From: Flammeovirgaceae bacterium
GTDB taxonomy: Bacteria; Bacteroidota; Bacteroidia; Cytophagales; Cyclobacteriaceae
Assembly (NCBI GenBank): GCA_027487845.1
Contig: JAIYCV010000006.1
Coordinates: 36,940 to 100,939, forward strand
Length of the DNA stretch: 64,000 nucleotides
Reading direction: 5' to 3'
The translations under genes were made by a program, and so were the position numbers. Numbering within the stretch: position 1 is the stretch's first letter; every line of letters begins with the position of its first letter. The notes beneath the pieces are model-generated. The model was not told where the DNA came from, made no database searches, and saw nothing but the letters and a program-made list of their open reading frames with translations. This document shows positions 6,743 to 22,266 of the stretch, piece after piece.

Positions 6743-7801
6743 ATGTTGTTTCGGTTTTTCCTTGTTCTCTTGCTGCTCACTTGTTATAATTTTTTGTTAG
6801 CGCAGCCGCGGTCCTTTCAAAGGGAGCCACTGATCGAAAAAATAACACTTTATTATGACGGTGCTGCTGAACTTACCTCTCCCGATAAAGCCAGCGTAAA
6901 GCGCATTGTTGAAATGAATCTAGACGCAATGGTCTTCCACGGAGTATATCAGGATTTTGATCTCAACGACAACTTAATTACGGAAGGTTATTTTCATGAA
7001 GGACATAAGCAGGGATTGAGAAACGAATATTTTAAGGATCGATCCTTAAAATCAACCATTGATTTTTCTGGAGATGATTTCGTTATCTGGCAACTAAAAA
7101 GTGAATTAAAACAAGATTTAGTAGTAAACGGGACTGGCAAGTTCACGCTTCCTTTCTTTTATGGCACGGGAACTACGTTGCAACCACGATGGAAGCAAGG
7201 AAAAGTGGAGGGAGAATTTCAATTTGGTAAGCGGATTGGCAAATGGCATTATTATGACTTAGGCAATGCCAAGTTGGACGAGGAAGAGTATGACAAAGGA
7301 AAATTCACAAACAGATGGCACTATGAAAATGGAGATTCTGTCCAGTTGAATTACCCTAAAACGATTTATTTTTCGCTTAGCAGTCTCATTGAAGAAGTTT
7401 TCAAATTCGATTCACAAACCTACTTTAACCTAACTAAGTGTTTTTCAGAGCGTGTAAGTTATCCATCAACGTTTAACCGGGCTGCTACTTTTGCTGGCGG
7501 TTTAAAACGACTGCTCCTTTTAATAGCCCAGCGCGTGCCAGTTCCTGAAAATTCACAATTGGTGATTCGCATTTCAATTAACGAGAATGGGATTGTTACG
7601 AGCACTTCCGTTGAGCAAGGGGTATCTAGGCAAATGGCTGCTGCTGTGGAAGTAATAAAAAGTGTTGAACTCAAGTTTTTCCCTGCCATTAGAAAAGGTA
7701 AGCCCTATTCCTCTGAGCTCTACTTGCCAATCTACGGGGGGGTAGAAGGAATAAAACTTATTGAAGCGTTGCCTTATGACTTTATTCAGCCTGACAACTA
7801 A
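6743..7801 (+). CDS. Exported protein with MORN-variant-like repeats and a C-terminal TonB_C-like domain
   Basis: Signal peptide; EGYFHEGHKQG and GEFQFGKRIGKWHYY repeats; C-terminal ATFAGG...ISINENGIV...FFPAIRKGKP...LYLPI resembles TonB_C. Confidence 0.65.
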   Translation: MLFRFFLVLLLLTCYNFLLAQPRSFQREPLIEKITLYYDGAAELTSPDKASVKRIVEMNLDAMVFHGVYQDFDLNDNLITEGYFHEGHKQGLRNEYFKDRSLKSTIDFSGDDFVIWQLKSELKQDLVVNGTGKFTLPFFYGTGTTLQPRWKQGKVEGEFQFGKRIGKWHYYDLGNAKLDEEEYDKGKFTNRWHYENGDSVQLNYPKTIYFSLSSLIEEVFKFDSQTYFNLTKCFSERVSYPSTFNRAATFAGGLKRLLLLIAQRVPVPENSQLVIRISINENGIVTSTSVEQGVSRQMAAAVEVIKSVELKFFPAIRKGKPYSSELYLPIYGGVEGIKLIEALPYDFIQPDN

Positions 7802-8448
7802 CTAAATTTCACCAGGCCTTGGCGAATTGCTTCTATGGCCATGCCCGTTCTGCTTTGCACCCTAAACTTGGTGAAAAGAATTTGCCGATATCCATCGGTG
7901 GTACGTTCAGAAATTCCCATTCGTATTGCGATTTCTTTGTAAGGCATATCGCTACAGGCGAATTGTAAGAATTCCATTTCTTTTTCGGTAAGAGTTATCG
8001 TGTTACCTTTTACAACAAGGGGGGTGATAAGTTTTTTAAAACTGAGCCGCTCGGCTTCCGAGTTGTAATAGCCCGTTTCATAAACCTGACGCAAGGCTAT
8101 TTCAAGTTCATCGGGGTTGGTGTCTTTAAATAGATAGCAACAGCAACCTGCCCGCAGCATGTTAATGATTGTTCGCTCTTCATTACTTACCGAGAGAGCG
8201 ACTAATTTTATGGTGGGATGATTTTTTGAGAGCCATTTGGTAGTTTGAATCCCATCCATTACGGGCATGGCAACATCAACCAACAAAATATCGGGCAATG
8301 CCTCACCAGAACTAATTTTTTCTTGCAAGTCCACACCATTGCTGGCTTCAAGTGTAACCTTAAAATCTGCAAAACTGTTTAAAAGTAGACTTAGCGACTT
8401 GCTAAATAGTTTATGGTCATCCACAATACCAATGGAAATGATCTGCAT
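7798..8448 (-). CDS. NarL/LuxR-family response regulator
   Basis: Receiver domain (IVDDH, DILLVDVAMPVMDG) plus LuxR HTH (LTEKEMEFLQ...YKEIA..MGISERT). Confidence 0.95.
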   Translation of the reverse strand: MQIISIGIVDDHKLFSKSLSLLLNSFADFKVTLEASNGVDLQEKISSGEALPDILLVDVAMPVMDGIQTTKWLSKNHPTIKLVALSVSNEERTIINMLRAGCCCYLFKDTNPDELEIALRQVYETGYYNSEAERLSFKKLITPLVVKGNTITLTEKEMEFLQFACSDMPYKEIAIRMGISERTTDGYRQILFTKFRVQSRTGMAIEAIRQGLVKFS

Positions 8449-8542
8449 ACCAGAGCTGAATTTTTATTTTAGATCACACAAGATACTAGAAACTCACGTC
8501 CAGAAAAATTTTTTCACGCTAGTCTGTTAACTAATTAGTAGT

Positions 8543-9319
8543 TCAAACAGGAATTTTTATATACACGGTAGTTCCACCTTGTTGGGAACGCCACTCTACC
8601 ACACCCGATAATATGGACACTCGGTGCTTAATATTGGTAATGCCAATTCCATGCTTTGATGAAAGTTCGGGGTCGAACCCAATTCCATTGTCATTTATAA
8701 AGATCGCCAACGATGTTTGCAAATCGTCAATGACAATATCAAAATGAGTGGCTACTGCGTGCTTAATGGCATTTTGAAGGCACTCCTGTATAATGCGAAA
8801 TAGGATTAGTTGTTTATCAACAGAAAGGTATAATTCTTCCGGATGCTTCAAAGAAGCCACAAACTCTTTGGAGGCATTTATTCGGTTTATTTCATTTTGA
8901 AGGTTTTCGATCAAGCTAAACTGAGCGAGCCATTCTTTGTTAAAAGATTTGCTCAAGGCCCTTAATTCGTTTATAGCAATGCCAAGCGTATGGTCGGCTT
9001 CTTCCAATGTTTCTTTAGAATTTGGGAGTGTTCTTTTGCTTAGCCCAACTAGAAATTTGGAACTGCTTAAAAGCTGGCCGATGTTATCGTGCAACTCTTT
9101 GCTGATGTGATCCATTGTTTTCTCTTGCTCCTCTATTCTGGCTTTTAATATTTCTGCTTGAAATCTACTTTCCATTTCCTGTTTTTCCAGCCGCATCTTT
9201 AATTGCCGCTTTGCGTAGACTTGGAACAAAACGACCACCCCAATGGCCATCAACAAAAAGAAGGCTGAAGCTGCCACCACAATAAATACCTCTTCTAGTG
9301 ATTGTTCCATCATAAGCAA
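8543..9319 (-). CDS. Sensor histidine kinase (HisKA_3), single N-terminal TM, no evident sensor domain
   Basis: ISKELHDNIGQLLS H-box, ECLQNAIKHA N-box, DNGIGFD and GIGITNI G-boxes. One hydrophobic segment at about aa 11-35. Confidence 0.93.
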   Translation of the reverse strand: MLMMEQSLEEVFIVVAASAFFLLMAIGVVVLFQVYAKRQLKMRLEKQEMESRFQAEILKARIEEQEKTMDHISKELHDNIGQLLSSSKFLVGLSKRTLPNSKETLEEADHTLGIAINELRALSKSFNKEWLAQFSLIENLQNEINRINASKEFVASLKHPEELYLSVDKQLILFRIIQECLQNAIKHAVATHFDIVIDDLQTSLAIFINDNGIGFDPELSSKHGIGITNIKHRVSILSGVVEWRSQQGGTTVYIKIPV

Positions 9320-9389
9320 AAAATTGCACCAAGGTAATGACCAAACTGGGAAAAGACCAACCTCACCGAGACCTCTTGGCTTTCTATGG

Positions 9390-10085
9390 TTAAAATATTC
9401 TCGGGTGTTTTTTACGCCAGGTGATCCAAAGTATAGCGGAACAAATCATAAGCGAACTAATTAAGAGCAGAATATTGTGGCCATTCCACAAATTCATAAG
9501 AAGGTAGCGGTTAGAATCTGTGTAGTGGTCGGCTTCTTGAATTTTTTTTGTAAGATATCCATACGTTAAGAAGACAATGAAGGAACCACTATGGTAAAGC
9601 AGTTGGGCGGCTACAAACCAAAAATCAAAATTATGTGATAGTGGTTCATCTGTAACATTTTTTAGTGTTTGATACATGAAAAAAAATACCATTACCACAA
9701 TACAAAAAGAAGTAAGTACATACCCCAAGCTATCAAAAGCATTGGGGTTGTAATCAAGAAAGTAATAACCTATGTAGTAACAGACATTCAGGGCTACAAA
9801 AAATACTACCGTTAACCGATGCCATTTACCTTTCAGCCTGGTGTAAAAATAGAAACTCATTACAAGCGAAGTTAGGAGGCTCATTAATCGGTAATCGTCA
9901 ATATTGTTTTCTCCTCGATGTAGCAAATTCGCCTTTATCATGAGCAGACAGCCCAAAAAATAGTACCCTATTAATATTTTTACGCGGACACTTTTTTCTG
10001 ACCGAGCATGGTAAATCAAGAAAAGGACGAGCAAAAGAAAACTGGATGGCTCAATATTGAAAAAGACATATTTAATGAAATTCAT
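9390..10085 (-). CDS. Uncharacterised seven-TM membrane protein
   Basis: 231 aa with seven hydrophobic segments by inspection, co-oriented with the kinase and regulator. Confidence 0.75.
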   Translation of the reverse strand: MNFIKYVFFNIEPSSFLLLVLFLIYHARSEKSVRVKILIGYYFLGCLLMIKANLLHRGENNIDDYRLMSLLTSLVMSFYFYTRLKGKWHRLTVVFFVALNVCYYIGYYFLDYNPNAFDSLGYVLTSFCIVVMVFFFMYQTLKNVTDEPLSHNFDFWFVAAQLLYHSGSFIVFLTYGYLTKKIQEADHYTDSNRYLLMNLWNGHNILLLISSLMICSAILWITWRKKHPRIF

Positions 10086-10137
10086 TAGGAGTTTTTTAGT
10101 ATGAGTTAATTCATCATTGAGCCGTTCAAAACCCTCT

Positions 10138-10395
10138 TTATTTACCGATACAAGGAGGGCATGGTCCTCCCTTTACCGACTTGATGCCACTACGCAAACC
10201 GCCCTTTGCAATTTTACCTGTAGCTGTGGCAATAATTCGCATAATACCTACTTCTTCACCACTGCTGGTAGTGCCTGTTTCTATGTAGGCGGTAAAGGAA
10301 ATAATCGATCCTTTATCAATGATTTTTTTTAAGTCCTCTGACTTGAAATCAAATTCAAGAGCAGTTTTCTTCTTTGGTGTAGGTTTTTTTGCCAT
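10138..10395 (-). CDS. Small basic protein (85 aa) with C-terminal GG-PCPPC-IGK motif
   Basis: Clean ORF with an A-rich leader, first gene of the co-oriented cassette. C-terminus verified by hand: TCG GTA AAG GGA GGA CCA TGC CCT CCT TGT ATC GGT AAA TAA. Confidence 0.7.
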   Translation of the reverse strand: MAKKPTPKKKTALEFDFKSEDLKKIIDKGSIISFTAYIETGTTSSGEEVGIMRIIATATGKIAKGGLRSGIKSVKGGPCPPCIGK

Positions 10396-10465
10396 AATTT
10401 TTAACGATTAAAGGTTTGTGTTTTTTTAGACGGTTACAAATCTCCGAAATATTCTAATACCATCG

Positions 10466-10556
10466 TACCGTGATTTTCCACGGGTGTATACCGTGGTTTT
10501 CCACGGGTAACCATACCGTGGAAAATACGGGGTCGATACCGTGGAAAAACACGGTT
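10466..10556. promoter_or_regulatory. Four-copy palindromic array (CCGTGG-N4-CCACGG-like), candidate response-regulator binding sites
   Basis: Copies start at 10466 (TACCGTGATTTTCCACGGGT), 10489 (TACCGTGGTTTTCCACGGGT), 10514 (TACCGTGGAAAATACGGGGT) and 10537 (TACCGTGGAAAAACACGGTT). The period is 23/25/23 bp, and the array lies between divergent genes. Confidence 0.75.
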
Positions 10557-10654
10557 GACAAGCTCGTGCCACTTTGCTCACCTTTGACTCATTAATTTTT
10601 TCACACCCAGCCGATGGGCTGGATTGAAAAAAATAACCCCAAAAATTACCCCTT

Positions 10655-11464
10655 ATGGCACATAAATTAACACGTTTTGGCTGGCAACCTGATCTGCCCG
10701 ACTACCGAGATTTAGTATTTGCAGCCTCCCGCACCATGTTGCGTAAGCTTCCCACGAAAGTGGACTTAACTAATTTATGCCCGCCTGTATATAATCAAGA
10801 TTGGTTGGGGAGCTGCACCGCCAACGCCATTGGAGCAGCATTTCAATTTGGGCAAATGAAACAGAACGCCTCGAAAGCGTTTATGCCCTCCCGCTTATTC
10901 ATCTATTATAACGAGCGCGTAATCGAAAATACGGTAAGCATAGACAATGGTGCCCAATTGCGCACCGGCATTAAAACAGTGAACAAGCTGGGGGTTTGCC
11001 CGGAGGCCATGCATCCATACAAACCTTTTGAATTTAAAAAGAAGCCAGCTAAGAAATGTTTCGAGGAAGCGCTCAACCATCAGGTACTGAGCTATCACCG
11101 TGTGAAGCGCAACCTGAGCCAACTAAAAAGTTGCCTGGCCGAAGGCTATCCCTTTGTCTTTGGGTTTACCACCTACGAATCGTTTGAGAGCGATGAGGTA
11201 AAGGCCTCAGGCAAGCTGAATATGCCTGAACGAGGTGAGGACAGAGGAGACGGCCATGCGGTAATGGCAGTAGGCTATAATGAAACCAGCAAGCGATTTA
11301 TTGTGCGCAACAGCTATGGCGAAGAGTGGGGCAAGAGGGGATATTTTACCATGCCCTATGAGTATCTGTTAAACGAAAACCTGAGTGATGACTTCTGGAC
11401 AATTAGGGTGGTAGAGTTAGGAGAAGAAAAAGGAAAAGCTCGAAGTAAAACGAATAAGAAATAG
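10655..11464 (+). CDS. Papain-like cysteine peptidase (C1 family, xylellain-like)
   Basis: FGWQPDLPDYRD prosegment, NQDWLGSC (oxyanion Gln and catalytic Cys), GHAV (His) and RNSYG (Asn). No signal peptide. Confidence 0.92.
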   Translation: MAHKLTRFGWQPDLPDYRDLVFAASRTMLRKLPTKVDLTNLCPPVYNQDWLGSCTANAIGAAFQFGQMKQNASKAFMPSRLFIYYNERVIENTVSIDNGAQLRTGIKTVNKLGVCPEAMHPYKPFEFKKKPAKKCFEEALNHQVLSYHRVKRNLSQLKSCLAEGYPFVFGFTTYESFESDEVKASGKLNMPERGEDRGDGHAVMAVGYNETSKRFIVRNSYGEEWGKRGYFTMPYEYLLNENLSDDFWTIRVVELGEEKGKARSKTNKK

Positions 11465-11531
11465 CCTTCGGCAAGGCACAGTTAAATATACGGTGAATTG
11501 CTCAGGTCAATAAAGATAGGGTTTAGGTTAA

Positions 11532-11579
11532 GCTGCTGCTTCGCGGGGCCGCCCCACATACGGCCCTGCAAGTGGTGGC
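11532..11579 (+). other. Long GC-rich hairpin with several G-U pairs (possible structured RNA or terminator)
   Basis: GCTGCTGCTT pairs with AAGTGGTGGC using 4 G-U pairs, and GGGGCCG pairs with CGGCCCT around a 9-nt loop. Confidence 0.45.
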
Positions 11580-11587
11580 GAATAGAG

Positions 11588-11650
11588 GTGAGACGGGAGA
11601 CGTAAGATAATAGACATAAGACGCGAGATTTGAGACATGAGACTTGAGAT
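11588..11650. repeat. Nine degenerate heptamer repeats (consensus NNGAGAY)
   Basis: GTGAGAC GGGAGAC GTAAGAT AATAGAC ATAAGAC GCGAGAT TTGAGAC ATGAGAC TTGAGAT. Confidence 0.8.
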
Positions 11651-11659
11651 ACGTCTCAA

Positions 11660-11744
11660 AGGCGTCTGACACCTCAAAGGTGTCTTGACGCCTGAACAGG
11701 ATGAGACTCTAATCACGTCATCGCGAGGAACGAAGCGATCTGCA
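11660..11744. repeat. REP-like composite palindrome module, copy 1
   Basis: AGGCGTCTGACACCTCAAAGGTGTCTTGACGCCT hairpin (11660-11693), followed by GTCATCGCGAGGAACGAAGCGATCTGCA (11717-11744). Confidence 0.7.
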
Positions 11745-11778
11745 TTAGAACTAGTTAGTAAGAACCAAATAAAGGAAA

Positions 11779-11886
11779 ATGAATATGGACAAAACAAAAC
11801 CACAGGATAAGTACACGCGGTTTGTAGCGATTGCCCTGGGGGTCTTTATAGCGTTGCTGGTGCTATTAACAGTGTTGCAAAATTAG
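11779..11886 (+). CDS. Putative 35-aa single-TM small protein (below the ORF-track cutoff)
   Basis: MNMDKTKPQDKYTRFVAIALGVFIALLVLLTVLQN: a charged N-terminus plus a 19-aa hydrophobic stretch, preceded by an A-rich leader (AAAGGAAA). Confidence 0.5.
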   Translation: MNMDKTKPQDKYTRFVAIALGVFIALLVLLTVLQN

Positions 11887-11900
11887 TGTAAGAGTATCTG

Positions 11901-11994
11901 GGCGTCTGACAACTTCAAGGTGTCCTCACGCCTAAAAATGATTTGAGAACCGAAGTACTTCATCGCGTGGGAGGAACGACCGAAGCGATCTGCA
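11901..11994. repeat. REP-like composite palindrome module, copy 2 (diverged)
   Basis: GGCGTCTGACAACTTCAAGGTGTCCTCACGCCT (11901-11933), followed by TTCATCGCGTGGGAGGAACGACCGAAGCGATCTGCA (11959-11994). Confidence 0.65.
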
Positions 11995-12039
11995 GTTGAA
12001 AAGTACTTAATATGAATAGATAACTAAAATGATATAAAT

Positions 12040-12975
12040 ATGCCACGACAAACCATTATCGACACAGCCGCTTCGCAAAACGGAACAAAAGAAAACCCGC
12101 CCAACACCAACAAAACCAAGTACGGAGAATGGTATGGCATGAACGGAGTGCATTGGTGCGCCATCTTTGTAAGCTGGGTGTACAATGAAGCAGGGCATCC
12201 GCTCGGCACCATCGATTCCCCGAAAGGCTATCACTATTGCCCGTCTGCCTATAACTTCTGGAAGAGGAACAACCGACTAACCAAAGACCCCCAACCGGGC
12301 GACATTGTACTATACGATTGGGAAGGCGATGGCCTCAGCAACCATACTGGTATATTTGTGGCATGGGTAAAACCGGGGGAAACCTTCAAAGCATGGGAAG
12401 GCAACACCTCCCTTACCAACGATAGCGATGGCGGCCAGGTAATGCTGCGCACACGCTTTGTCAAGTTAGTGCAGGCGTTTGTAAACCCTGGCGTTTTTGA
12501 AGGTGCCCTACAACCCATTACAGGCATACTTAAAAGAGGCGACAAAGGCGCAGGCGTGGCCGCCATTCAAAAACAACTCTTCGATTTAAAATACGAGGGC
12601 GTTACCGTAGATGGCGATTTTGGTGCTACTACAGAGAAACTCATCAAGCAATTTCAGCAAGAGCATGGCCTTGCGGTAACAGGCATAGTAGATGCCATTG
12701 TAGAAGGCGCCTTGCAGGCAGAACTCAATAAACCAAAAGTTGCCGACACAAAACTTACCACAGGCGTTTACTTGAAGAAAGGCAACTCGGGTGTTGCGGT
12801 GGTGGCATTGCAAAAAGCATTGAATAGAAATGGCGCACGCCCTTCCCTTACAGAAGACGGAGTGTTTGGCACCGACACCGTGGTGGCACTGAAAGCCTAC
12901 CAAACAAGCAAGGGTATAACTGCTGATGGCATTGCAGGACCAGAAAGTTTTAAGGCGTTAGGACTGAAAATATAA
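12040..12975 (+). CDS. CHAP-domain peptidoglycan hydrolase with two C-terminal PG_binding_1 domains
   Basis: N-terminal WCAIFVSW (Cys) and NHTGI (His), EGNT; two repeats LKRGDKG..V..IQ..L...VDGDFG..T and LKKGNSG..V..LQ..L...DGVFG..T. No signal peptide seen. Confidence 0.88.
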   Translation: MPRQTIIDTAASQNGTKENPPNTNKTKYGEWYGMNGVHWCAIFVSWVYNEAGHPLGTIDSPKGYHYCPSAYNFWKRNNRLTKDPQPGDIVLYDWEGDGLSNHTGIFVAWVKPGETFKAWEGNTSLTNDSDGGQVMLRTRFVKLVQAFVNPGVFEGALQPITGILKRGDKGAGVAAIQKQLFDLKYEGVTVDGDFGATTEKLIKQFQQEHGLAVTGIVDAIVEGALQAELNKPKVADTKLTTGVYLKKGNSGVAVVALQKALNRNGARPSLTEDGVFGTDTVVALKAYQTSKGITADGIAGPESFKALGLKI

Positions 12976-12985
12976 CTTTAACAAG

Positions 12986-14020
12986 TTGCCGATGAAACTA
13001 TCTATTAATAAGGTTTTTCTACCACCAAAGCAACAAAAGAATTTATGCTCCGCGTACCTCCGCGAACTCTGCGGTTTAATCTTGCTAATTTTCTGCTGCT
13101 CAATAACAGGACACGCTAGCTGCTCAGTAAAAGCAGACTCTGCAGCGGCTGCTCCCAATGCCTACACCATTCTGGAGGTGAAAGAAATGCACTTGCAAAA
13201 AGATACGATACGTTTGGGCGAGTTTATGGCTATAAAATTTAAACCGGGAGATAGCATTGAAAAGATCACCACATTATTGTTAGATGGCATTGAAGTCAAA
13301 ACCAAACCCTGGAAAACCAGCCCCAGCACCAACACCATTTTTTACAAAGTAGATGATGAAATGCAAAAACTTGCCGCTCAGTTTTTGGTAAGCGAAGCAC
13401 TCAACAACAATTACATCAAAGTTTCTATTTCTGTAAGCGATGGCAAGCAGTTCTCCAACTCCACTGTAGCGATGTATTTCGCCATTAAGCAAAAAATAAA
13501 AAATGCTTGGATATGGATTGTGCTGCTGTTAATACCCTTGCTGTTTTTCATCTACCTAAGTTTAAAACACAATATATTAAAAGACGATGGTAATGTTTAC
13601 TATAGCCTGGGCAGAACGCAACTCTTTTTCTGGACTGTTCTATTCTGTTTCTGCTACCTCTACCTTTGGCTTAAGACGGGCGCCTTGCCGGACATTACCC
13701 ATACAGTACTCATTCTTTTAGGCGTAAGCGTAGGCACTACCGCTGCTGCCAAAGTTATTGAGAACAACCCAGCAGTGCCGCCACCAGCAGTTGCCGACCA
13801 GCCCGTAAGTGAAGGCTGGCTCATAGACATACTAAGCGACAGCAAAAGTATAAGCGTGCATCGGTTTCAGAATGTAGCGTTCACCCTTGTGTATGGAGTT
13901 ATTTTTATACAGCAAGTGGGCTACGCCTTGGTGTTCCCCGAATTTGATACCAACGCTCTGCTACTAATGGGCATAAGCTCTGGCACCTATGCAGGGTTAA
14001 AAATTACGGAAGCAAAATGA
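12986..14020 (+). CDS. Membrane protein: exported N-terminal domain plus internally duplicated C-terminal TM module
   Basis: Signal-like segment and a TM at about aa 172-192, then SLGRTQLFFWTV...LPDITHTVLILLGVSVGT repeated as SVHRFQNVAFTL...FPEFDTNALLLMGISSGT. Confidence 0.7.
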   Translation: MPMKLSINKVFLPPKQQKNLCSAYLRELCGLILLIFCCSITGHASCSVKADSAAAAPNAYTILEVKEMHLQKDTIRLGEFMAIKFKPGDSIEKITTLLLDGIEVKTKPWKTSPSTNTIFYKVDDEMQKLAAQFLVSEALNNNYIKVSISVSDGKQFSNSTVAMYFAIKQKIKNAWIWIVLLLIPLLFFIYLSLKHNILKDDGNVYYSLGRTQLFFWTVLFCFCYLYLWLKTGALPDITHTVLILLGVSVGTTAAAKVIENNPAVPPPAVADQPVSEGWLIDILSDSKSISVHRFQNVAFTLVYGVIFIQQVGYALVFPEFDTNALLLMGISSGTYAGLKITEAK

Positions 14021-14091
14021 AGTAACTAAAATTAAAAAAACGGAGTAAGCCGAAAATCCGGAGAAGAGTAGGCAAAGAAATAAAAATCTTT

Positions 14092-16080
14092 ATGAAAAAG
14101 GCTTTAATCATTTTATTGGTTTTACCAGCACTTTCTTTCGCGCAAGTAGCTTCACCACCTACTTTGATAGCTGGTTTATCCGGATTGTCTGTTGACAAAG
14201 GAAATTTAGATGTTGCTTTGATCTCTGAAATTGTAACTGAGAAACAGGCAGAGTTGAAAAAAGAACTGATTAAACGAGTTTTCTTTGATAAACTAAAATC
14301 AGAAAACTACGTGACTTGGGAGTTTGCATACAATTCACTCGAAATTCTTCTAAACTCACAAAGTAAGCCAAACATTCAAAAAGAGCTTTTGGAGTATGCT
14401 TCCAATGCCACGCTGGTATACAGTTTTACCGAGGCATATCTTCAGGTTTCAAAGAAGTTTGGAAACTCTGCATTGGACGGCCTAATCGAGCTTTGGGATA
14501 AAAATTCAAAATTAAAAGACTGCTTTGATTATCCGCCAAAGGATTGCTCGGAACTCAAAGATTTGAGTTTGATTCTTCCACACCTTATTCTTTCCTGCGA
14601 TGATTGCGGTTCAGCTAAAAAGACTTCAACGAATTTGAATAATGTTCTTATTGATATGACTTATGACATTTTAAGAAACGATAAGACACTTAAAAGTCTT
14701 GGTTTTTTTAAAGGACAATTTCCTTTGGGGGAAACCTACTACCAGCTGAATAGCCAATATTGGAAAAATCGAGATAATGTCAAGGTGGACGCATTGTATA
14801 CAAGAATGAAAAAAGAACTAAGCACATTGATTGAATACTATTACGTTGCAAAAGCAGCAGTCAATAACGGTGTTAATGAACTGGAAAGATTAATAACCTT
14901 TGATTCTGCAAATACTGCAAATCAGTTACTTGTCATTAATGGAAATCTCAAAGATCTAGAGACAGATTTAGTGGGCATCTCCAAAAGCATTTCTTCAAGC
15001 CCTACCAAGGAAAGTAATCTTTCCGAAAGGATCTCGGAGACTTACCTAGCTTTTAAGGATTTTCAGAAAAGGGGAAATGAACGGTACCGAGTTGAAGACT
15101 TGTACTATGCTGATCAGGTCACACTTCCATTGATTATCAAATTAACAAGCGAATATGGATTGCCAAAAAAATATCTAGATGCAGCGCTGGGGTTGAGAGA
15201 GATTATACTCTCAAATCTATTGAAACAAGCTTACAGTGACTTTAGTAAAAAATTAAAAGAGGGAAATACCAACCAGGACACTTCGATAAAAAATGTTTTT
15301 AGTATTTACAGACTACAAAACTACAAGTCATTTATTGAATTGCTGGATAAATTTAGCAAACTCGACAAGGCAGAAACCTATCAATTTATTTTAGGAGAAC
15401 TAAAAGACCTAAGCAAAATTTTCGAAAAATCTGACCCAACACTTTATGTCATGGTGTCAAGTCTATCTGATTTTTTGAAAAAATTTACCGTTTTTGATAA
15501 AGAGAAAAACGCTATTACGATGGATGTGGAGGAGGTGATTTCCCAGCTTTACACGCAATATGAAGCACAAACTAATAGATGGCTACAAGTATATTTTTCA
15601 GTTGGGCTCAATCAAACGTTCAACAGTTCAAATTTAACAGATGCTGCCGGAGGCAATGTTGGTTTTGCGGCTGAAAAGTTGGGTTTTAAAATTATCCCAA
15701 ATGCCTGGAATGTCAAGAAGATTAGGGCACAACAATACGAAAAGTTTTTTGGACCAAAAGGTAAGGATCAAGGTTTTATCAATAAGACGCCATTCATATC
15801 AGACTTTCATTTCATCGCCTATGGGAGTGGCCTGCTCTATAATATTGTAAATGTGAAAACGGAAGAGAAATTTAATCGACCGCTTTTTGGCGTAGGATTT
15901 GGCCCTTCTTTTTTTAATAGTCTTGATTTACATGTTTTTGCGAATTGGACTTTCCCCACCGCTCAGCAAACACTCGCTTGGGATAAACCAATAACTGGTT
16001 TTTCTTTTGATATAAAAATCACTGAGTACTTATCACGGCTCAAGCAAAAGAAAAGTGCTAATAACTCTGCAAGCAAATAG
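14092..16080 (+). CDS. Exported hypothetical protein (662 aa), helical body and possible beta-rich C-terminus
   Basis: Signal peptide MKKALIILLVLPALSFAQ in a long AT-rich ORF. No family recognised. Confidence 0.75.
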   Translation: MKKALIILLVLPALSFAQVASPPTLIAGLSGLSVDKGNLDVALISEIVTEKQAELKKELIKRVFFDKLKSENYVTWEFAYNSLEILLNSQSKPNIQKELLEYASNATLVYSFTEAYLQVSKKFGNSALDGLIELWDKNSKLKDCFDYPPKDCSELKDLSLILPHLILSCDDCGSAKKTSTNLNNVLIDMTYDILRNDKTLKSLGFFKGQFPLGETYYQLNSQYWKNRDNVKVDALYTRMKKELSTLIEYYYVAKAAVNNGVNELERLITFDSANTANQLLVINGNLKDLETDLVGISKSISSSPTKESNLSERISETYLAFKDFQKRGNERYRVEDLYYADQVTLPLIIKLTSEYGLPKKYLDAALGLREIILSNLLKQAYSDFSKKLKEGNTNQDTSIKNVFSIYRLQNYKSFIELLDKFSKLDKAETYQFILGELKDLSKIFEKSDPTLYVMVSSLSDFLKKFTVFDKEKNAITMDVEEVISQLYTQYEAQTNRWLQVYFSVGLNQTFNSSNLTDAAGGNVGFAAEKLGFKIIPNAWNVKKIRAQQYEKFFGPKGKDQGFINKTPFISDFHFIAYGSGLLYNIVNVKTEEKFNRPLFGVGFGPSFFNSLDLHVFANWTFPTAQQTLAWDKPITGFSFDIKITEYLSRLKQKKSANNSASK

Positions 16081-16107
16081 CAACCAATAAGTCTTAATCG
16101 ATATCAG

Positions 16108-18414
16108 ATGACCCCCACACAACACATTCGTTACACCTTACTATCACTTTGGTTTTATGTTCCCAGCGTGATCACCATTTTGATTGGGTATTTTCTTCTC
16201 ACTAAACTTACGCAAGGTCAAGATGTGGTCATGCTGGTGGGGGAATGCAAGCTACCCGTACTTTTTACATCTGTTGGTGTGTTGCTATGGGCATTCTTCG
16301 TGTGGTATTGCAATCGGCTGATCGGCTATGAAAAGAATTTCAATGATCCCAAGTGGCCTGTTGATTATCTTTCATTGTTTCCACGCTTACTTGCTTACAA
16401 CACCTTTGTTACTGTGCAGGCAGCAATTGTGGCCTTGCCTTCGATAGGTTGCGACAATGCTTACTTTTTATGGGCATTTGTGATTCTGCACAACGGATAC
16501 TATTTCTTCTTAAACTTTGCATTCAAGGGCACTTCTATAACTAAAACAAAAATTGTTACTCTTCTGATCGCCATTGCGTACATGGCCTACCTTATTTCTC
16601 TTTGCTATATCCACAAAAATGGAGTTTTACATCAGAAACAATTGCCATTGGTGGCACTTTTATTATTTGCTCTGCAAATTTCAGTACTCTACTTTTTTAT
16701 AACGCGCAGAGCCAAACTCGACCATAAGGCACAAAAGTTAAAATATAAGCCAAACGCCATCGGTTATGTGAGGTTACTTTCTTGTAAAATTATAAAAGTA
16801 CCGAGGTGGTTCAGGGCAAATGAGCAGTTCACCTTCCTGATTTTTAATGTTATGGCAATCATAGCCATTGCTTTGTATTTCGTCATAACCAATAGCATTT
16901 GGGTGGCCAATGGGCTAGGGCCTCTACCAGTAGTCTTGTTGGCTTTTGGCATACTGACCGGGTTGGCCACTATTATTACCTATTTCTCGATGCGTGTAAA
17001 ATTCAATCTCTTTTTTGTGCTATACGTAGTCGCACTTCTTGCAGGGAATTTCTTTGAACCCTACTCAGTAAAACTTACTAAATCAAAAATACCCGAGTAT
17101 CAAAATCGTCCAGATTTAAAAATGTATTTAAAAAAATGGGTGGAAGATAAAAGCAGGAAAGCAAAAATTCAAAAACTTAATTCACCAAAATCATACCCAG
17201 TGTATTTAGTTTTAGCCGATGGTGGTGCTTCGCGTTCAGGTTACTGGGCTGCCAGCGTATTGGCCGCTTGGCAAAAAGAATCGCTTGCTGATTCAGCAAC
17301 AACAGGTACGCTGAACGATCACTTGCTGGTACTTTCAGGTGCCTCGGGTGGCAGTGTAGGCAATGCTGCTTTTTACGGACTTCTTAAATCAAATGAAAAT
17401 GATCCAAAAATTCTTGATCACGCGCGGGATTTCTTAGGCCAAGATTTTCTTACCTACACGATTGCGCATTATTTAGGTTCTGATTTAGCTGGCCATTTTA
17501 TTCCTGGCCTACGCGACCGTGCTACCGCTCTTAGTAACAATATGGATTATTGGTCAGCAGACACCAAAAATTTATTTCATAAAGATTTGAATGAAGTGTT
17601 TGACACGACAGGTCGGCTGCCCATTCTTTTCATCAACACCACGCGGTTAGAAGAAGGCACCCCAGCCGTGGTGAGTTCAATAAAATTAAAAGGCTCTGGC
17701 GAATTAAAAGGCTTTAGCGAACGGCTGGATGTATTGGGCTTGGTGGACTCTACGGCAGAAAGTGGAAAGGGCAACATCCAGCTAAGCACCGCGGCTGTGT
17801 TGGGTGCGCGTTTTCCCTATGTTTCGCCTGCAGGAAGCATTTCTTATAAAGTAACGAAAAAAGTGAAAGGTGAAAAAAAGACGGAAGAACGTCACCACTA
17901 CTTTGTGGATGGAGGATATTTTGATAACAGTGGCGCAGGAATAGTACACGAGATGATGCAGGAAATAGAAATCATTAGTAATACGGCTACCGATTCATGC
18001 TATAAAAAATTATTGAAAAAACTCTCCTTTCGCTTAATACACATTACAAACAGTCCCTATGGCGAAACTACCTTAAACCCAATCCATCCGCTCACTAACG
18101 ATTTGGCCGCGCCCTTGCTCACCGTGTTCAATACTTACGGCTCACAGACTACTGTAAATGACCAACGGTTGGAATCTTTTCTATATCGGATGAACCCACA
18201 CGACAACACTATCACAAATGTTAATCTATACCGAAAGGAGCGAAGGGACGAAAGCTATCCCATGAATTGGGTGATCAGCAAATACCGAAAGGACTTAATG
18301 GATGCGCGGGTGTCAGAGGTATTGAAATATGACTTGGGGAAATTTTTAATTAAAAAAAAAGCAATAAGACCAAGCCGAAAATCATTTAACCGAGTAAGCA
18401 CACAAATAAATTAA
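16108..18414 (+). CDS. Membrane-anchored patatin-like phospholipase
   Basis: About 8 N-terminal TMs, ADGGASRSG (oxyanion hole), SGASGGS (G-x-S-x-G nucleophile) and VDGGYFDNSG (DGG). Confidence 0.88.
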   Translation: MTPTQHIRYTLLSLWFYVPSVITILIGYFLLTKLTQGQDVVMLVGECKLPVLFTSVGVLLWAFFVWYCNRLIGYEKNFNDPKWPVDYLSLFPRLLAYNTFVTVQAAIVALPSIGCDNAYFLWAFVILHNGYYFFLNFAFKGTSITKTKIVTLLIAIAYMAYLISLCYIHKNGVLHQKQLPLVALLLFALQISVLYFFITRRAKLDHKAQKLKYKPNAIGYVRLLSCKIIKVPRWFRANEQFTFLIFNVMAIIAIALYFVITNSIWVANGLGPLPVVLLAFGILTGLATIITYFSMRVKFNLFFVLYVVALLAGNFFEPYSVKLTKSKIPEYQNRPDLKMYLKKWVEDKSRKAKIQKLNSPKSYPVYLVLADGGASRSGYWAASVLAAWQKESLADSATTGTLNDHLLVLSGASGGSVGNAAFYGLLKSNENDPKILDHARDFLGQDFLTYTIAHYLGSDLAGHFIPGLRDRATALSNNMDYWSADTKNLFHKDLNEVFDTTGRLPILFINTTRLEEGTPAVVSSIKLKGSGELKGFSERLDVLGLVDSTAESGKGNIQLSTAAVLGARFPYVSPAGSISYKVTKKVKGEKKTEERHHYFVDGGYFDNSGAGIVHEMMQEIEIISNTATDSCYKKLLKKLSFRLIHITNSPYGETTLNPIHPLTNDLAAPLLTVFNTYGSQTTVNDQRLESFLYRMNPHDNTITNVNLYRKERRDESYPMNWVISKYRKDLMDARVSEVLKYDLGKFLIKKKAIRPSRKSFNRVSTQIN

Positions 18415-18427
18415 TAAACCCAAAAAA

Positions 18428-18541
18428 ATGAGCTATCAAAACATCTCCTACAACTTGGTGCAAGCTGCGATCGATGCCGTGAAGGCCGCGCTTGGTACCA
18501 TATCAAGCCTTGCTTCTCGTCTTCATGAATCAACAGAATAA
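18428..18541 (+). pseudogene. Truncated remnant of a Bacteroidota hypothetical gene (MSYQNIS... family)
   Basis: MSYQNISYNLVQAAIDAVKAALGTI resembles N-termini of the form MPYQNIxAxLxxADIxAVKAAIxTI that I recall. The frame is lost after about 25 codons. Confidence 0.35.
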
Positions 18542-18754
18542 AAACAAACAACAATTAACCAATAACTGCCTGACACTTCAAAGTTTTCTGCCTCGTTTGC
18601 TTTTTTTATACCCATGGGAAAACATTGACAACCTCATCAAGAGTGATTTATCCCAGTGAGATTACTATTAAGACAGGAATGAAATAGCGATCATGTGATC
18701 TGATAAATTTTTTAATGATAAATCTATAAAAGCAAACTAAAAAACTCAATTATT

Positions 18755-19330
18755 ATGTACTACATAACTCTCGCCTTAGGAATATTTCTTGTTTTGTCTG
18801 GAATCATCGCATTGAAATTTGGTTGGCCATCTGTTAATGATATTCAACGGTTTGAAGGCTTGGGTATCAGATTGGAAATTTCGGTAGCTACCTTATTAAT
18901 TCTGTTAGGCTCGATTTGTATCCTCTCAAACTTAATCATTAACATATTCAATCAACAAAATAAAGATCAAGAAATCAGTAGAAAAAAAACAGAATATGAA
19001 ACAAAAAAAGATGAATACGAGATATTAATCTCTAATCTCAAGAATCAAAAGGTAACAGTTTTCATTGAACTTCCTATTGCCGATCAACCCTTGTATTATA
19101 ATTTTGATCTCAAAAAGCTCAATTTAACCTATGTGAAAGACTTAGATCCCAAACAGTTGCGAGCGGACACAATAAAGGGTTATGATGGCACCCAACTTTC
19201 ATTTGAGGTACAGGGGGTCAACCCTTATTCAACGATTAGAGACGTAATTTTATTTGATCCGATTAGCAATAAAAAATGGAGAAGCAATGAAGAGGTTCGG
19301 TTATTGATACCTAAAGTTAAGTTAAAATGA
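18755..19330 (+). CDS. Hypothetical membrane protein (2 N-terminal TMs, coiled-coil, soluble C-terminal domain)
   Basis: ORF track. AT-rich, and overlaps the next gene by ATGA. Confidence 0.7.
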   Translation: MYYITLALGIFLVLSGIIALKFGWPSVNDIQRFEGLGIRLEISVATLLILLGSICILSNLIINIFNQQNKDQEISRKKTEYETKKDEYEILISNLKNQKVTVFIELPIADQPLYYNFDLKKLNLTYVKDLDPKQLRADTIKGYDGTQLSFEVQGVNPYSTIRDVILFDPISNKKWRSNEEVRLLIPKVKLK

Positions 19331-19998
19331 AACCAAGATTTGTTATAACCCTAATCCTCTTACTTCTTTTTCTTATGGGGGAAGCGTTTTGCCAAGATAT
19401 CCAAACAGTGAACACGTCATCTGAATCTCGAAATGGTCGTTACAATTGGGAAGTTCATTTGCTGGCTAACCAAGAAACATTAAATTCAATTAAGTATGTT
19501 GAATATAAGCTTCATCCTACATTTGAAGTTCCTATTGTAAAAGTCTCTGATAAGGCGAGTAATTTTGAGCTTAAATCGAGCGGATGGGGTGAATTTAAAA
19601 TAGTTTTGAAAGTTGTTTTCAATGATGGCTCAGTCAAAGAATTAAATCATCAGCTTTCACTTGGTCAAGAAGGTCCGAATCTTCAAAACGGTAAACCTTC
19701 ATTAGAGGCAGATAAAATCATAATCAGAAACTTGTCTCAGCGAGTTGGAAGTAAATGGTGGAGTTGGACAGTTTACTTGTCTGGAAATGAAACTAAAATA
19801 AACTCGATTCGTTGTGTACGGTATATCCTACACCCTACTTTTTCAAAACCTATTCGGGAAATTTGTACAAAAGGAAATATTCATGATCAATATTTCCCTT
19901 TCAGCACTAGTGGCTGGGGTACTTTTAGAATCAAAATAAAAATCTTTTTTAAAAACGGAGAGACTCAAGATCTTTATCATGATTTGGTTTTTAATTGA
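19327..19998 (+). CDS. Secreted protein with two tandem prokaryotic YEATS-like domains
   Basis: Signal peptide; two repeats, W.VHL...VEYKLHPTF...SSGWGEF and W.VYL...VRYILHPTF...TSGWGTF. HPTF and GWGEF are YEATS signature motifs. Confidence 0.85.
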   Translation: MKPRFVITLILLLLFLMGEAFCQDIQTVNTSSESRNGRYNWEVHLLANQETLNSIKYVEYKLHPTFEVPIVKVSDKASNFELKSSGWGEFKIVLKVVFNDGSVKELNHQLSLGQEGPNLQNGKPSLEADKIIIRNLSQRVGSKWWSWTVYLSGNETKINSIRCVRYILHPTFSKPIREICTKGNIHDQYFPFSTSGWGTFRIKIKIFFKNGETQDLYHDLVFN

Positions 19999-20010
19999 TT
20001 ACTAAGCCTT

Positions 20011-20811: not shown

Positions 20812-20831
20812 AATCATTTAATAGCCAGTTT

Positions 20832-22061: not shown

Positions 22062-22118
22062 CTAACTATTGCCTTGGTTTTTTCAACTGACACCAAACTG
22101 CTACAATTCACTACTAAC

Positions 22119-22201
22119 CCAGCTGTTCGACAAGTTAACGAAGTGATTGTCGAACCCAGCTGTTCCAGCTGTTCGCCAAGTTAACGGAGTGATTATCGAA
22201 C
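22119..22201. repeat. Two 37-bp palindromic REP-like units (3 mismatches, 46-bp period)
   Basis: CCAGCTGTTCGACAAGTTAACGAAGTGATTGTCGAAC (22119-22155) and CCAGCTGTTCGCCAAGTTAACGGAGTGATTATCGAAC (22165-22201). The arms are GTTCGACAA/TTGTCGAAC. Confidence 0.75.
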
Positions 22202-22254
22202 TAGAGATAAAGAGTGATTTTAATCCCTATGCCTTCTGAGTTTCGAAAACTTGG

Positions 22255-22262
22255 TATCTTTG
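22255..22262 (+). promoter_or_regulatory. Bacteroidota -7 promoter element (TAnnTTTG)
   Basis: TATCTTTG lies 4 nt upstream of the ATG at 22267. Confidence 0.55.
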
Positions 22263-22266
22263 CTTT

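Follow-up and report, generated by a model that had tools for sequence, protein, structure and literature searches.

A conserved four-gene Bacteroidota cassette with a sensor-less kinase, a separate hypervariable seven-helix protein and lysis-type gene neighbours

Genes of the cassette

Positions 7798–10395 of the window (the whole 64,000-nucleotide stretch of DNA analysed here) carry four co-oriented genes on the minus strand, and reading of their open reading frames gives intergenic gaps of exactly 52, 70 and 94 bp. The genes encode, in order of transcription, a small leaderless protein, a stand-alone membrane protein with seven helices (7TM protein), a short histidine kinase and a response regulator (Table 1). 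Ordinary conserved housekeeping genes (SDR, TonB_C and amino-acid permeases) make up the left flank, and the right flank of the window holds patatin, pYEATS and DUF488 genes.

Table 1 Features of the cassette and of the divergent genes next to it
Feature	Position	Strand	Basis
NarL/LuxR-type response regulator (REC and GerE HTH), 216 aa	7798..8448	-	Pfam, NCBIfam
Sensor-less histidine kinase, 258 aa from TTG	8543..9319	-	ORF, Pfam
Stand-alone 7TM protein, 231 aa; presumed signal-input subunit	9390..10085	-	AF2, family search
Small leaderless protein, 85 aa	10138..10395	-	ORF; family of 120 homologous clusters
Tail-coding part of small gene; start of hypervariable block	10138..10207	-	Nucleotide identity drop
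Putative Bacteroidota -7 promoter element GAGATTTG of the small-7TM-kinase-regulator operon	10437..10444	-	Read from sequence, inference
Operator array, four 16-bp palindromes CCGTG(G/A)-TTTT-CCACGG; presumed regulator binding site	10466..10560	.	Pattern search
Putative divergent promoter (TTGACA, 18 nt, CACCTTTG) for C1 peptidase gene	10555..10586	+	Read from sequence, inference
Leaderless papain-family (C1) cysteine peptidase; first gene of divergent unit	10655..11464	+	Pfam
35-aa single-TM ORF of holin-like size and position, before wall hydrolase gene	11779..11886	+	ORF; inference
Leaderless CHAP amidase/peptidase with two PG_binding_1 domains, endolysin-like	12040..12975	+	Pfam

The kinase comprises one N-terminal TM helix, a coiled-coil linker, and HisKA_3 (PF07730, 3.5e-7) and HATPase_c (PF02518, 1e-11) domains. 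The sequence shows an H box (ELHDNIGQ) as well as N and G boxes, and the protein is a HisKA_3 histidine kinase of the NarX/LiaS/DesK type. The single hydrophobic helix spans approximately residues 11–33 and is 91–93% conserved among close relatives, which begin at the ATG at 9313 or 9310. Because just 8–10 residues precede this helix, the protein has no room for an input domain. The regulator combines Response_reg (PF00072, 2.4e-20) and GerE (PF00196, 7.6e-10) domains and belongs to the NarL/FixJ (LuxR-type) regulators; its best NCBIfam match, NarL (1.4e-27), lies below the equivalog cut-off. Across the family, its recognition helix has kept the sequence SERT(T/I/V)DGYR.

The AF2 model of the 7TM protein is a confident bundle of seven helices (pLDDT 92, pTM 0.89). 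Its family comprises 546 representative clusters, the best 150 of which are 94–252 aa long (full-length ones about 200–250), and none of these 150 is fused to a kinase. Neither the protein nor any of 59 relatives has a Pfam family above threshold. Assignment to 7TMR-DISM or another described bacterial 7TM family was rejected, as none of the 60 members reaches a cut-off; sub-threshold matches were one to PF07695 (7TMR-DISM_7TM, 0.006) and one to HlyIII (1.4e-4). The window protein also has no NCBIfam, PDB-sequence or PADLOC match. Foldseek ranks GPCRs (Ste2, TAS2R14 and mGlu1) as the top matches to the model, at TM-scores of 0.45–0.57 and non-significant E-values of 0.1–1. The family contains no conserved His or Cys. 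By our reading of the alignment and model, the near-invariant polar residues E12, N61, Y65, S119 and N204 occupy the outer 40% of the helices under a positive-inside topology.

The small protein has a Lys-rich N terminus, a conserved core, a low-complexity linker and the C-terminal tail GGPCPPCIGK. Its AF2 model (pLDDT 62) contains a helix at residues 19–26, strands at 31–42 and 48–59 that form a beta-hairpin, and a disordered tail; the model and the family alignment together delimit a conserved folded core of roughly 60 aa. The protein matches nothing in Pfam, NCBIfam, PADLOC or the PDB. Nevertheless, its 120 homologous clusters, a dN/dS of 0.1–0.2 among close relatives and a position that is fixed in at least 24 loci indicate that the small ORF is a real gene.

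The tail follows the motif G-C-P-x-P-P-C in 98 of 120 close homologues. A further 12 of the 120 carry a Cys-free variant, G-x-P-x-P-P-G, in which both Cys are replaced by Gly or other residues and the P-x-P-P scaffold and the full cassette are kept. Longer relatives occur as well. Specifically, at least 11 of the remote loci that were read encode a protein of 100–170 aa ending in C-P-x(1-5)-C directly upstream of the 7TM gene, which is nearly always preceded by a small protein with such an end. The Cys pair with Pro after the first Cys is invariant in 11 aligned members of the longer family; the spacing of the tail Cys ranges from 2 to 5 residues. The two small-protein groups are linked by hhalign (probability 85%, E 6e-6). 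Five of 18 longer relatives are lipoproteins or have signal peptides.

A preliminary description of this DNA had named the small protein for a CPPC end and taken it for a signal precursor or modulator. The Cys/Pro-rich C terminus stands, but literal CPPC is not a family motif, being present in only 2 of the 120 homologues. A role as a secreted signal precursor is not established: none of the 120 window-type homologues has a signal peptide, the core is conserved and folded, and genes for an exporter or a modifying enzyme are not conserved next to the small gene. The same description had reported the four spaced genes and a kinase with one TM helix and no space for a sensory domain, and both are borne out by the reading given above.

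Conservation, hypervariability and co-variation

The 7TM family is present in 59 of 401 Bacteroidota genomes sampled and in 39 of 179 genera, and the trio of 7TM, kinase and regulator genes recurs in about 15% of the sampled genomes. In 47 of 52 loci a short kinase gene adjoins the 7TM gene. The next gene is usually that of the regulator, although some loci have it at another place or past the end of the short flank. Tandem 7TM duplicates beside one kinase gene are found in several loci. The order small, 7TM, kinase, regulator is seen in 20 of 28 mapped loci, and the small gene in all 28; in most of the remaining mapped loci, the order is obscured by gene calling or cut contigs. Literature searches found no characterised Bacteroidota system with this architecture. 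As judged from these comparisons, the cassette is a conserved, previously undescribed Bacteroidota signalling unit. The preliminary description had named loss of synteny and a non-conserved small ORF as refuting its proposal, and both are clearly contradicted by these loci. The view of the 7TM protein as the obligate partner of a sensor-less kinase is likewise supported, by the adjoining kinase genes and by the lack of fusions among the best 150 representatives.

Among close relatives, dS of the 7TM gene ranges from 1.5 to saturated, compared with 0.1–0.5 for the kinase, the regulator and the flanks, the flanks alone giving 0.1–0.3; dN/dS of the 7TM gene is about 0.1. A block of low identity runs from the tail codons (around position 10207) through TM1–4 of the 7TM gene, and nucleotide identity to close relatives drops from 76–86% to 52–54% at the tail codons. 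The small-protein tail and the N-terminal half of the 7TM protein (TM1–4) are hypervariable, whereas the C-terminal half of the 7TM protein is more conserved. The same trend is seen in other clades.

The tail and the 7TM protein vary together. The window and locus L086 share the tail GGPCPPCIGK and have 100% identical 7TM proteins, whereas their small-protein cores are merely 81% identical; likewise, L087 and L088 have the tail GGPNPPGMN in common and 7TM proteins that are 99% identical. Pairs with different tails have 7TM identities of 55–77%. In partial Mantel tests, which are liberal for related sequences, tail distance tracks 7TM distance when the kinase is controlled (r = 0.43, p = 2e-4) or the small-protein core is controlled (r = 0.46, p = 2e-4), whereas tail and kinase distances are not significantly correlated when the 7TM protein is controlled (r = -0.19). 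Co-variation between small-protein C termini and receptor had been put forward as a check in the preliminary description, and its outcome ties the small protein functionally to the 7TM protein. Part of this co-variation comes from linkage alone because the tail and the 7TM gene are physically adjacent. There are also counter-examples: the tails of L001, L003 and L004 are nearly alike, yet their 7TM proteins are just 59–80% identical, and the small proteins of L044 and L048 are 94% identical with 7TM proteins at 64%.

A predicted operator array and divergent protease and lysis genes

The preliminary description had included neither receptor hypervariability nor the operator array and the divergent protease and lysis genes that are the likely output. 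The palindromes of the array start at 10468, 10491, 10516 and 10539 (about 23-bp spacing), with two units in each orientation, and pattern matches number 3 against 0.04 expected. The array lies between two divergent putative promoters, the second of which abuts the last palindrome. It is near-identical among relatives with 20–40% protein divergence. Arrays precede the small gene in all close loci read and in several remote ones, and their sequence varies with lineage. After the array, other loci have nAnnTTTG elements equivalent to the putative -7 element. Furthermore, the same genome has two further array copies before paralogous genes with the same promoter layout, and the layout of the divergent promoter is repeated there and at L045.

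The first divergent gene encodes a C1 peptidase (Peptidase_C1, 1.1e-12, plus a weak Peptidase_C39_2 match), and such a peptidase is the divergent neighbour in 14 loci. Counterparts of the 35-aa ORF are small genes at that place in L001 and a GTA_holin_3TM gene in L004. The CHAP and PG_binding_1 architecture recurs, by Pfam, directly divergent to the cassette in L046, and L047 has a protein of the CHAP hydrolase's cluster at the matching place. The divergent genes are interchangeable among loci, and their products are proteases (papain-like or caspase-like), wall hydrolases of the holin/endolysin type and patatin; wall hydrolases, of six types, are the commonest neighbours. The cassette probably switches on the neighbouring protease and cell-wall-lysis genes, with co-transcription of the downstream hydrolase being putative.

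A proposed circuit and its alternatives

We favour, with somewhat better than even confidence, a split receptor kinase with a pherotype-like tail/7TM pair and a lytic output, in which action of the signal outside the cell is conjecture. This reading draws on gene conservation, domain content, hypervariability, tail–receptor co-variation and the association of the array with the cassette. The one-TM kinase would take its signal from the separately encoded 7TM protein, presumably by direct contact, and the small protein would be the cognate partner of this receptor. Its constrained tail, G-C-P-x-P-P-C-xxx, may bind the receptor and carry the specificity-determining residues, such that tail and receptor diversify as a pair. 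The kinase would then phosphorylate the regulator, which is predicted to bind the palindrome array. There the regulator would activate its own operon, and therefore create positive feedback, and would also activate the divergent unit. As this unit encodes leaderless cysteine proteases together with wall hydrolases of the holin/endolysin type, and at some loci also patatin, the output would be lytic or cell-dismantling. Further observations count against this model. Several loci, L006, L056 and L062–L065 among them, have no C1 peptidase, the 7TM motif with the strongest conservation, NVTDEPLSxNFDFW, is predicted to lie in the cytoplasm, the resemblance of the 7TM model to GPCR structures is not significant, and the lack of signal peptides leaves access of the tail to an outward-facing pocket without explanation.

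Like the proposed circuit, the agrBDCA locus of staphylococci and comQXPA of Bacillus are self-activating loci with a divergent output promoter. In both, the signal peptide and membrane sensor are hypervariable and the catalytic part of the kinase and the regulator are conserved, with distinct alleles among close relatives. The hypervariable signal-plus-sensor block beside a conserved kinase core and regulator is present here too, as are distinct alleles among close relatives; this is a functional likeness rather than membership. Membership was rejected: no AgrB or ComQ homologue or Pfam match was found, and the 7TM protein lacks conserved His or Cys. Moreover, the sensor is a separate gene here instead of the kinase N terminus, the kinase is HisKA_3 rather than HPK10, the regulator is GerE-type rather than LytTR, and in place of a short propeptide the candidate signal is a folded protein of 80 aa that lacks a leader and has no evident export route. 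On the output side, two-component circuits are known from competence-induced fratricide (ComDE/ComX acting on CbpD and LytA) and from control of lysis by LytSR-cid/lrg. As in those systems, the circuit adjoins, and presumably controls, CHAP/amidase murein hydrolases and holin-like proteins; however, the components are unrelated, and the hydrolases here lack signal peptides and are joined by papain-like/caspase-like proteases and patatin.

An envelope-stress circuit is possible, if on the whole improbable. Here the kinase would sense membrane or wall perturbation within the membrane, the 7TM and small proteins would be auxiliary feedback subunits that set the kinase/phosphatase balance instead of ligand and receptor, and the regulon would remodel peptidoglycan. 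The vraUTSR operon has the same order, being an autoregulated four-gene operon of small protein, membrane protein, HisKA_3 kinase and NarL-type regulator in which the membrane protein controls the kinase (PMC8774646). VraUTSR of Staphylococcus aureus and LiaFSR of Bacillus and other Firmicutes share with the cassette the operon order and a kinase without an extracytoplasmic sensor; the LiaFSR and VraTSR kinases span the membrane with two helices joined by a very short outer loop where ours has one helix, but the logic of a missing input domain is alike. The kinase scores 2.1e-21 against the NCBIfam LiaS model, below its cut-off, and wall hydrolases are the commonest neighbours. SaePQRS of S. 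aureus, a four-gene operon with an autoactivated promoter, pairs a small lipoprotein with a membrane protein that jointly act on an intramembrane-sensing kinase (PMC8774646), and some longer relatives of the small protein are lipoproteins, like SaeP. SaePQRS differs in gene order and in its OmpR-type regulator, SaePQ is dispensable for activation, and the review describes no allelic diversification of SaeQ (PMC8774646). Identity with the known accessory proteins was rejected, neither protein matching the VraT, LiaF or VraU families or showing homology to SaeP or SaeQ. Unlike VraUTSR and LiaFSR, the cassette belongs to Bacteroidota, has a hypervariable sensor gene and adjoins lytic or proteolytic genes instead of genes for wall synthesis. 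A dS 5–20 times that of the flanks, allele-like 7TM replacement and tail co-variation are unexpected for a housekeeping stress module, and leaderless papain-like/caspase-like proteases, patatin and holin/endolysin pairs look destructive, not reparative.

The hypervariability of the 7TM protein would also fit an arms race, in which this protein detects phage or competitor attack at the inner membrane and suicide effectors (proteases, lysis enzymes and phospholipase) are fired, with the small protein as guard, decoy or inhibitor. Variable, swappable effectors (C1 or C14 protease, six wall hydrolase types, patatin) next to a sensor that is conserved, tandem 7TM duplicates that feed one kinase, and right-flank genes typical of conflict islands agree with such an immune or abortive-infection sensor, which we nonetheless consider quite doubtful. 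No PADLOC model matched any locus gene among ten proteins (nine encoded within 7798–18414 and one paralogue of about 160 aa), the left flank is conserved housekeeping, two-component transcriptional control with positive feedback acts slowly by the standards of abortive infection, and the co-variation of tail and 7TM protein suggests that the partner is self-encoded and not a foreign ligand. Least credible, and very unlikely, is a thiol-redox or metal sensor whose two tail Cys switch between reduced, oxidised or metal-bound states that the 7TM/kinase complex reads. The prevalence of the Cys pair in both small-protein families suggests such a role, yet the Cys-free homologues keep scaffold and cassette, a defined metal or redox site would not usually have such variable Cys spacing, and the hypervariable residues around the Cys are left without a reason.

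A bolder version of the split receptor, which we regard as unlikely, is kin-recognition (pherotype) signalling. The leaderless small protein, with its disulfide/proline-constrained hypervariable tail, would be released only by circuit-driven lysis of sister cells through the holin/endolysin and protease genes, and be recognised allele-specifically by the GPCR-like 7TM protein driving the separate kinase. If true, kin lysis would be a self-propagating, strain-specific public signal, and Bacteroidota would have their first kin-recognition signalling system based on a peptide or protein.

Many two-component kinases lack an input domain and, to our knowledge, few of their true sensors have been identified outside Firmicutes. 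The locus defines two unannotated families, the 7TM receptor-like protein and the small protein ending in C-P-x-C, that accompany a kinase/regulator pair across Bacteroidota, and with the predicted operator the regulon can be read from sequence. Allele-like receptor and tail diversification has, as far as we know, been described mainly for Gram-positive peptide pheromone systems, and here it offers a directly testable specificity code. Bacteroidota are important in soil, water and gut communities, and the lytic/proteolytic neighbours would tie signalling to regulated lysis in a phylum in which such control is poorly known.

The four-gene unit and its distribution

The cassette comprises four co-oriented genes separated by gaps of 52, 70 and 94 bp, an arrangement put forward in a preliminary description of this DNA and confirmed exactly by the ORF listing. 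The kinase carries a single hydrophobic helix at approximately residues 11–33 that is preceded by 8–10 residues, which bears out the earlier observation that this one-helix protein has no room for a sensory domain. The seven-helix character ascribed to the membrane protein is reproduced by an AlphaFold2 model computed on a 29-sequence alignment (seven helices, pLDDT 92, pTM 0.89). A scan with Rfam gave no match inside the cassette, and a scan for sigma-70 promoters and terminators, which is uninformative for Bacteroidota promoters, returned fewer matches than shuffled sequences.

Features of the cassette, its flanks and the additional palindrome arrays of the same genome
Feature	Position	Strand	Basis or remark
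TonB_C-domain gene	6743-7801		Convergent with the regulator gene; stop-codon ends overlap by 4 bp (7798-7801)
Regulator, 216 aa, Response_reg + GerE	7798-8448	-	ORF listing; Pfam, NCBIfam
Kinase, 258 aa, HisKA_3 + HATPase_c	8543-9319	-	ORF listing; Pfam, NCBIfam
7TM protein, 231 aa, very hydrophobic	9390-10085	-	ORF listing; no Pfam/NCBIfam match
Small protein, 85 aa, ends GGPCPPCIGK	10138-10395	-	ORF listing; no Pfam/NCBIfam match
Palindrome array	10466-10560		Four palindromes
C1 peptidase gene	10655-11464	+	Divergent from the cassette
Hairpin repeat, about 35 nt, GGCGTCTGACACCTCAAAGGTGTCTTGACGCC	11661-11702, 11901-11942		Either side of the 35-aa TM ORF
DUF805b RNA motif (RF02914)	14040-14074	+	44.7 bits (gathering score 35.6); between 344-aa and 662-aa genes
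Right flank	14092-23969		Includes the 662-aa and patatin-like proteins
Weaker DUF805b copy (RF02914)	18365-18400	+	24.7 bits; within 3′ end of patatin gene
Prokaryotic YEATS protein	19327-19998		Right flank
DUF488 protein	22267-23151		Right flank
Second array copy, own genome	C7:14879-14943 (L011 5880-5944)		Upstream of a paralogous ~160-aa protein
Third array copy, own genome	C41:19154-19218 (L012 6155-6219)		Upstream of a paralogous ~160-aa protein

Only 11 close relatives of the 7TM protein are found in a database clustered at 90%; with a profile, 546 were retrieved at E <= 1e-3 from 1.84 billion representatives. The best 150 of these 546 are 94–252 aa in length, with full-length members of about 200–250 aa, and none of the 150 is fused to a kinase. 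The possibility that the 7TM and kinase genes are the halves of a broken fusion gene was rejected, because the split occurs throughout and those best 150 include no fusion. In a six-frame profile search, the family is present in 59 of 401 Bacteroidota genomes, which span 39 of 179 genera; multiple copies are frequent.

A short kinase adjoins the 7TM gene in all 23 loci of named genomes detected by tblastn with the window proteins as queries (Cytophagales, Cyclobacteriaceae, Ohtaekwangia, Ferruginibacter and Flavisolibacter) and in 24 of 29 loci from other genomes in a phylum sample (L014-L042), giving 47 of 52 loci overall, and the regulator gene usually comes next. In many loci the longest-ORF call for the kinase overlaps the 7TM stop codon, and the gap there is never more than a few bases. 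An iterated search over all ORFs of these loci recovered the small protein in 28, of which 20 carry the order small protein, 7TM protein, kinase, regulator; in most of the other eight, the order is obscured by gene calling or cut contigs. One locus (L006) retains this order despite otherwise unrelated surroundings. Furthermore, at least 11 of the remote loci examined encode, directly upstream of the 7TM gene, a protein of 100–170 aa in which a G-(I/L)-R-x-Y core is conserved and the C-terminus reads C-P-x(1-5)-C. By profile–profile comparison, these proteins are linked to the small proteins of the window type (probability 85%, E 6e-6), and one sequence, the small protein of locus L061, is matched by both profiles. 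Checked across genomes in this way, as the preliminary description had proposed, synteny and conservation of the small ORF both clearly hold, and the cassette is a conserved four-gene unit.

Some loci depart from the basic layout. Tandem 7TM duplicates precede a single kinase/regulator pair in six loci (L058, L059, L063, L080, L068 and L078), which look as if several receptors feed one kinase. A genome of the window's own genus (G311, locus L015 / L055) carries a cassette with the tail C-P-I-P-P-C and again an adjacent C1 peptidase gene, in which the 7TM protein, kinase and regulator are only 40–51% identical to those of the window; very different cassette lineages therefore coexist in one genus. 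In eight Cyclobacteriaceae/Cytophagales loci (L045, L049, L050, L051, L046, L047, L052 and L053), two shared genes follow the regulator on the opposite strand, one for a single-domain receiver protein (about 113 aa) and one for a TerB-like protein (about 140–150 aa); in that clade the circuit may include them as additional components.

Variation of the small-protein tail and the 7TM protein

The C-terminal tail of the small protein has the form G-C-P-x-P-P-C in 98 of 120 clusters and a Cys-free form, G-x-P-x-P-P-G, in 12. The window's G-P-C-P-P-C is shared with one other cluster (P0227), and C-P-C-P-P-C also occurs in two; a literal CPPC (2/120) was rejected as the defining motif. The variable sites are the x position and the residues trailing the last Cys or Gly, of which there are exactly three in 64 of 115 small proteins. 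A precursor of the bacteriocin type, with a GG leader cleaved by a C39-like protease, was rejected as a family trait because the Pro can be preceded by any of G, C, D, E, V, N or S, and the first Cys itself belongs to the motif. None of the 120 window-type proteins has a hydrophobic N-terminus, and 5 of 18 longer distant relatives carry signal or lipoprotein peptides; localisation is mixed across the family. The conserved core is modelled as a helix and a β-hairpin followed by a disordered linker and the tail, with modest confidence (pLDDT 62). The small protein gave nothing usable in Pfam, NCBIfam, PADLOC or PDB sequences, and Foldseek with this low-confidence model returned only noise.

Values of dS between the window and three close relatives are 0.1–0.3 for flanking genes and 0.1–0.5 for the regulator and kinase, rising to 0.6–0.8 for the small gene and from 1.5 to saturation for the 7TM gene. 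dN/dS is approximately 0.1 throughout, which points to long-lived alleles that have been maintained and speaks against relaxed constraint. Identity in windows of 100 nt falls from above 93% to 48–60% between about 10207 and about 9700, a stretch comprising the small-gene codons for the tail and 7TM helices 1–4, and regains more than 92% within the kinase gene, whose TM helix is 91–93% identical at the protein level. Other clades rank alike: for example, loci L062 and L063 share 64% identity in the 7TM protein, 93% in the kinase and 90% in the regulator.

The preliminary description had called for a check of co-variation between small-protein C-termini and the receptor, and tail distance indeed tracks 7TM distance over 26 loci. 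Partial Mantel tests gave r = 0.43 (p = 2e-4) with kinase distance removed and r = 0.46 (p = 2e-4) with small-core distance removed, and the correlation of tail with kinase given the 7TM protein is negative; such tests are liberal, and the tail and 7TM protein are encoded by adjacent genes. A metagenomic locus (L086) has the same tail as the window and a 7TM protein 100% identical to that of the window, together with the most divergent small-protein core of the set (81%). Likewise, L087 and L088 have another tail in common and 7TM proteins that are 99% identical, and loci with different tails have 7TM proteins that are 55–77% identical. Pairs within L001/L003/L004 and L044/L048 break this rule.

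The 7TM protein gave no usable match in Pfam, NCBIfam or PADLOC, nor did its family profile among PDB sequences, and Foldseek with the model returned non-significant matches to G-protein-coupled receptors (GPCRs). An enzymatic role of the CPBP/CAAX-protease or AgrB-like kind was rejected, as the family has no conserved His, Cys or EExxxR and no profile match. Its loops contain 13 Lys/Arg residues on the inner side versus 6 on the outer, which by the positive-inside rule places the N-terminus outside. In the model so oriented, near-invariant polar residues (E12, N61, Y65, S119 and N204) would fall within the bundle's outer 40%, where a pocket opening onto the periplasm would be expected, and a subfamily motif, NVTDEPLSxNFDFW, would be cytoplasmic and is a plausible coupling surface.

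The palindrome array and neighbouring genes

Four 16-bp palindromes, CCGTG(G/A)-TTTT-CCACGG, spaced by 23–25 bp, lie in the 259-bp spacer that separates the small gene from the divergent C1 peptidase gene; the pattern has three matches in the window versus 0.04 expected. This array is almost invariant among relatives with 7TM proteins only 58–73% identical, and every close locus examined has two to five palindromes upstream of the small gene (for example, ACGGGG-TTTT-CCCCGT or GGGGG-AAAA-CCCC). Related palindromes occur in remote loci, with three copies of ATGTGA-AAAA-TCACAT in L075 and two of TTTTCACGGTAT in L073. A Bacteroidota-type nAnnTTTG element appears to follow the array on each side, and a putative TTGAC element abuts the last palindrome on the peptidase side. 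Alone among DNA-binding proteins, the cassette regulator accompanies the array in every case, and its recognition helix is conserved; autoregulation and divergent activation through the array are therefore the natural prediction. Since this helix hardly varies, its comparison with the operator arms was uninformative.

The two additional arrays of this genome each lie about 100 nt upstream of a paralogous protein of about 160 aa to which no function is assigned, with the layout TTGAC-N18-GAGGTTTG found at the cassette, and these paralogs probably belong to the same regulon. Members of their family occur widely in Cytophagales, Ignavibacteria and Calditrichia and are all annotated as hypothetical; an IS3-like transposase follows one of the two copies.

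A leaderless papain-family peptidase gene is divergent from the cassette in 14 loci. A caspase-family C14 peptidase, confirmed by Pfam, occupies this position in L053, and the divergent proteins of L034 (= L082), L054 and L064 belong to the same cluster or are a phmmer match. Next come wall hydrolases, representing at least five catalytic types: CHAP + PG_binding_1 (in the window and L046 by Pfam, and in L047 by cluster), Amidase_2 + SH3 beside a GTA-type holin, Peptidase_M15_3, GH19, and a 260-aa protein with a PG-binding tail that reads as lysozyme-like. Patatin phospholipases and S8 and M6 peptidases are further neighbours. The window has a 35-aa single-TM ORF ahead of its CHAP gene, and the C1 peptidase and CHAP protein, the two proteins examined closely, are both without signal peptides. 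The four closest genomes share one left flank (TonB_C, SDR and permeases), and each has its own right, effector side. As read from these gene contents, this is the signature of a putative lysis or cell-dismantling module with swappable effectors, and we infer that co-regulation would extend past the first divergent gene.

The hairpin repeat of the right side is REP-like, with about 20 copies or fragments in the genome, some near the other two array loci. Farther right, an uncharacterised 662-aa protein and a 768-aa patatin-like phospholipase accompany the YEATS and DUF488 proteins in what looks like a conflict or defence island; PADLOC matched no model to the two proteins of this stretch that the scan covered, the 662-aa protein and the patatin.

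Relation to known systems and a proposed split receptor kinase

The closest systems in gene order and logic are vraUTSR/liaFSR and saePQRS (PMC8774646), and the closest in population genetics are agr and comQXPA. However, the accessory proteins of the cassette are not homologous to those of any of these systems, and tests for membership were negative. The separate sensor gene is a further difference; moreover, agr has another kinase class, and the regulators of agr and sae differ from that of the cassette. A literature search found no description of the cassette system.

The preliminary description had proposed a peptide-sensing system with the 7TM protein as receptor and the small protein as signal precursor or modulator. 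This interpretation is partly supported. Support is good for the conserved unit and for the 7TM protein as receptor and moderate for the tail in a ligand-like role, and signalling between cells through the extracellular space is possible. An envelope-stress circuit is the strongest rival.

A split receptor kinase is the best-supported reading. The 7TM protein would supply the input to the sensor-less kinase, with the constrained tail of the small protein as its cognate partner. The leaderless small protein could reach the outer face through lysis of sister cells or an exporter, or could act from the cytoplasmic side. The regulator would then act on the palindrome array, amplifying its own operon and firing the divergent proteolytic and lytic genes. 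As a variation on two-component systems that employ accessory sensor proteins, the cassette draws on two protein families without annotation.
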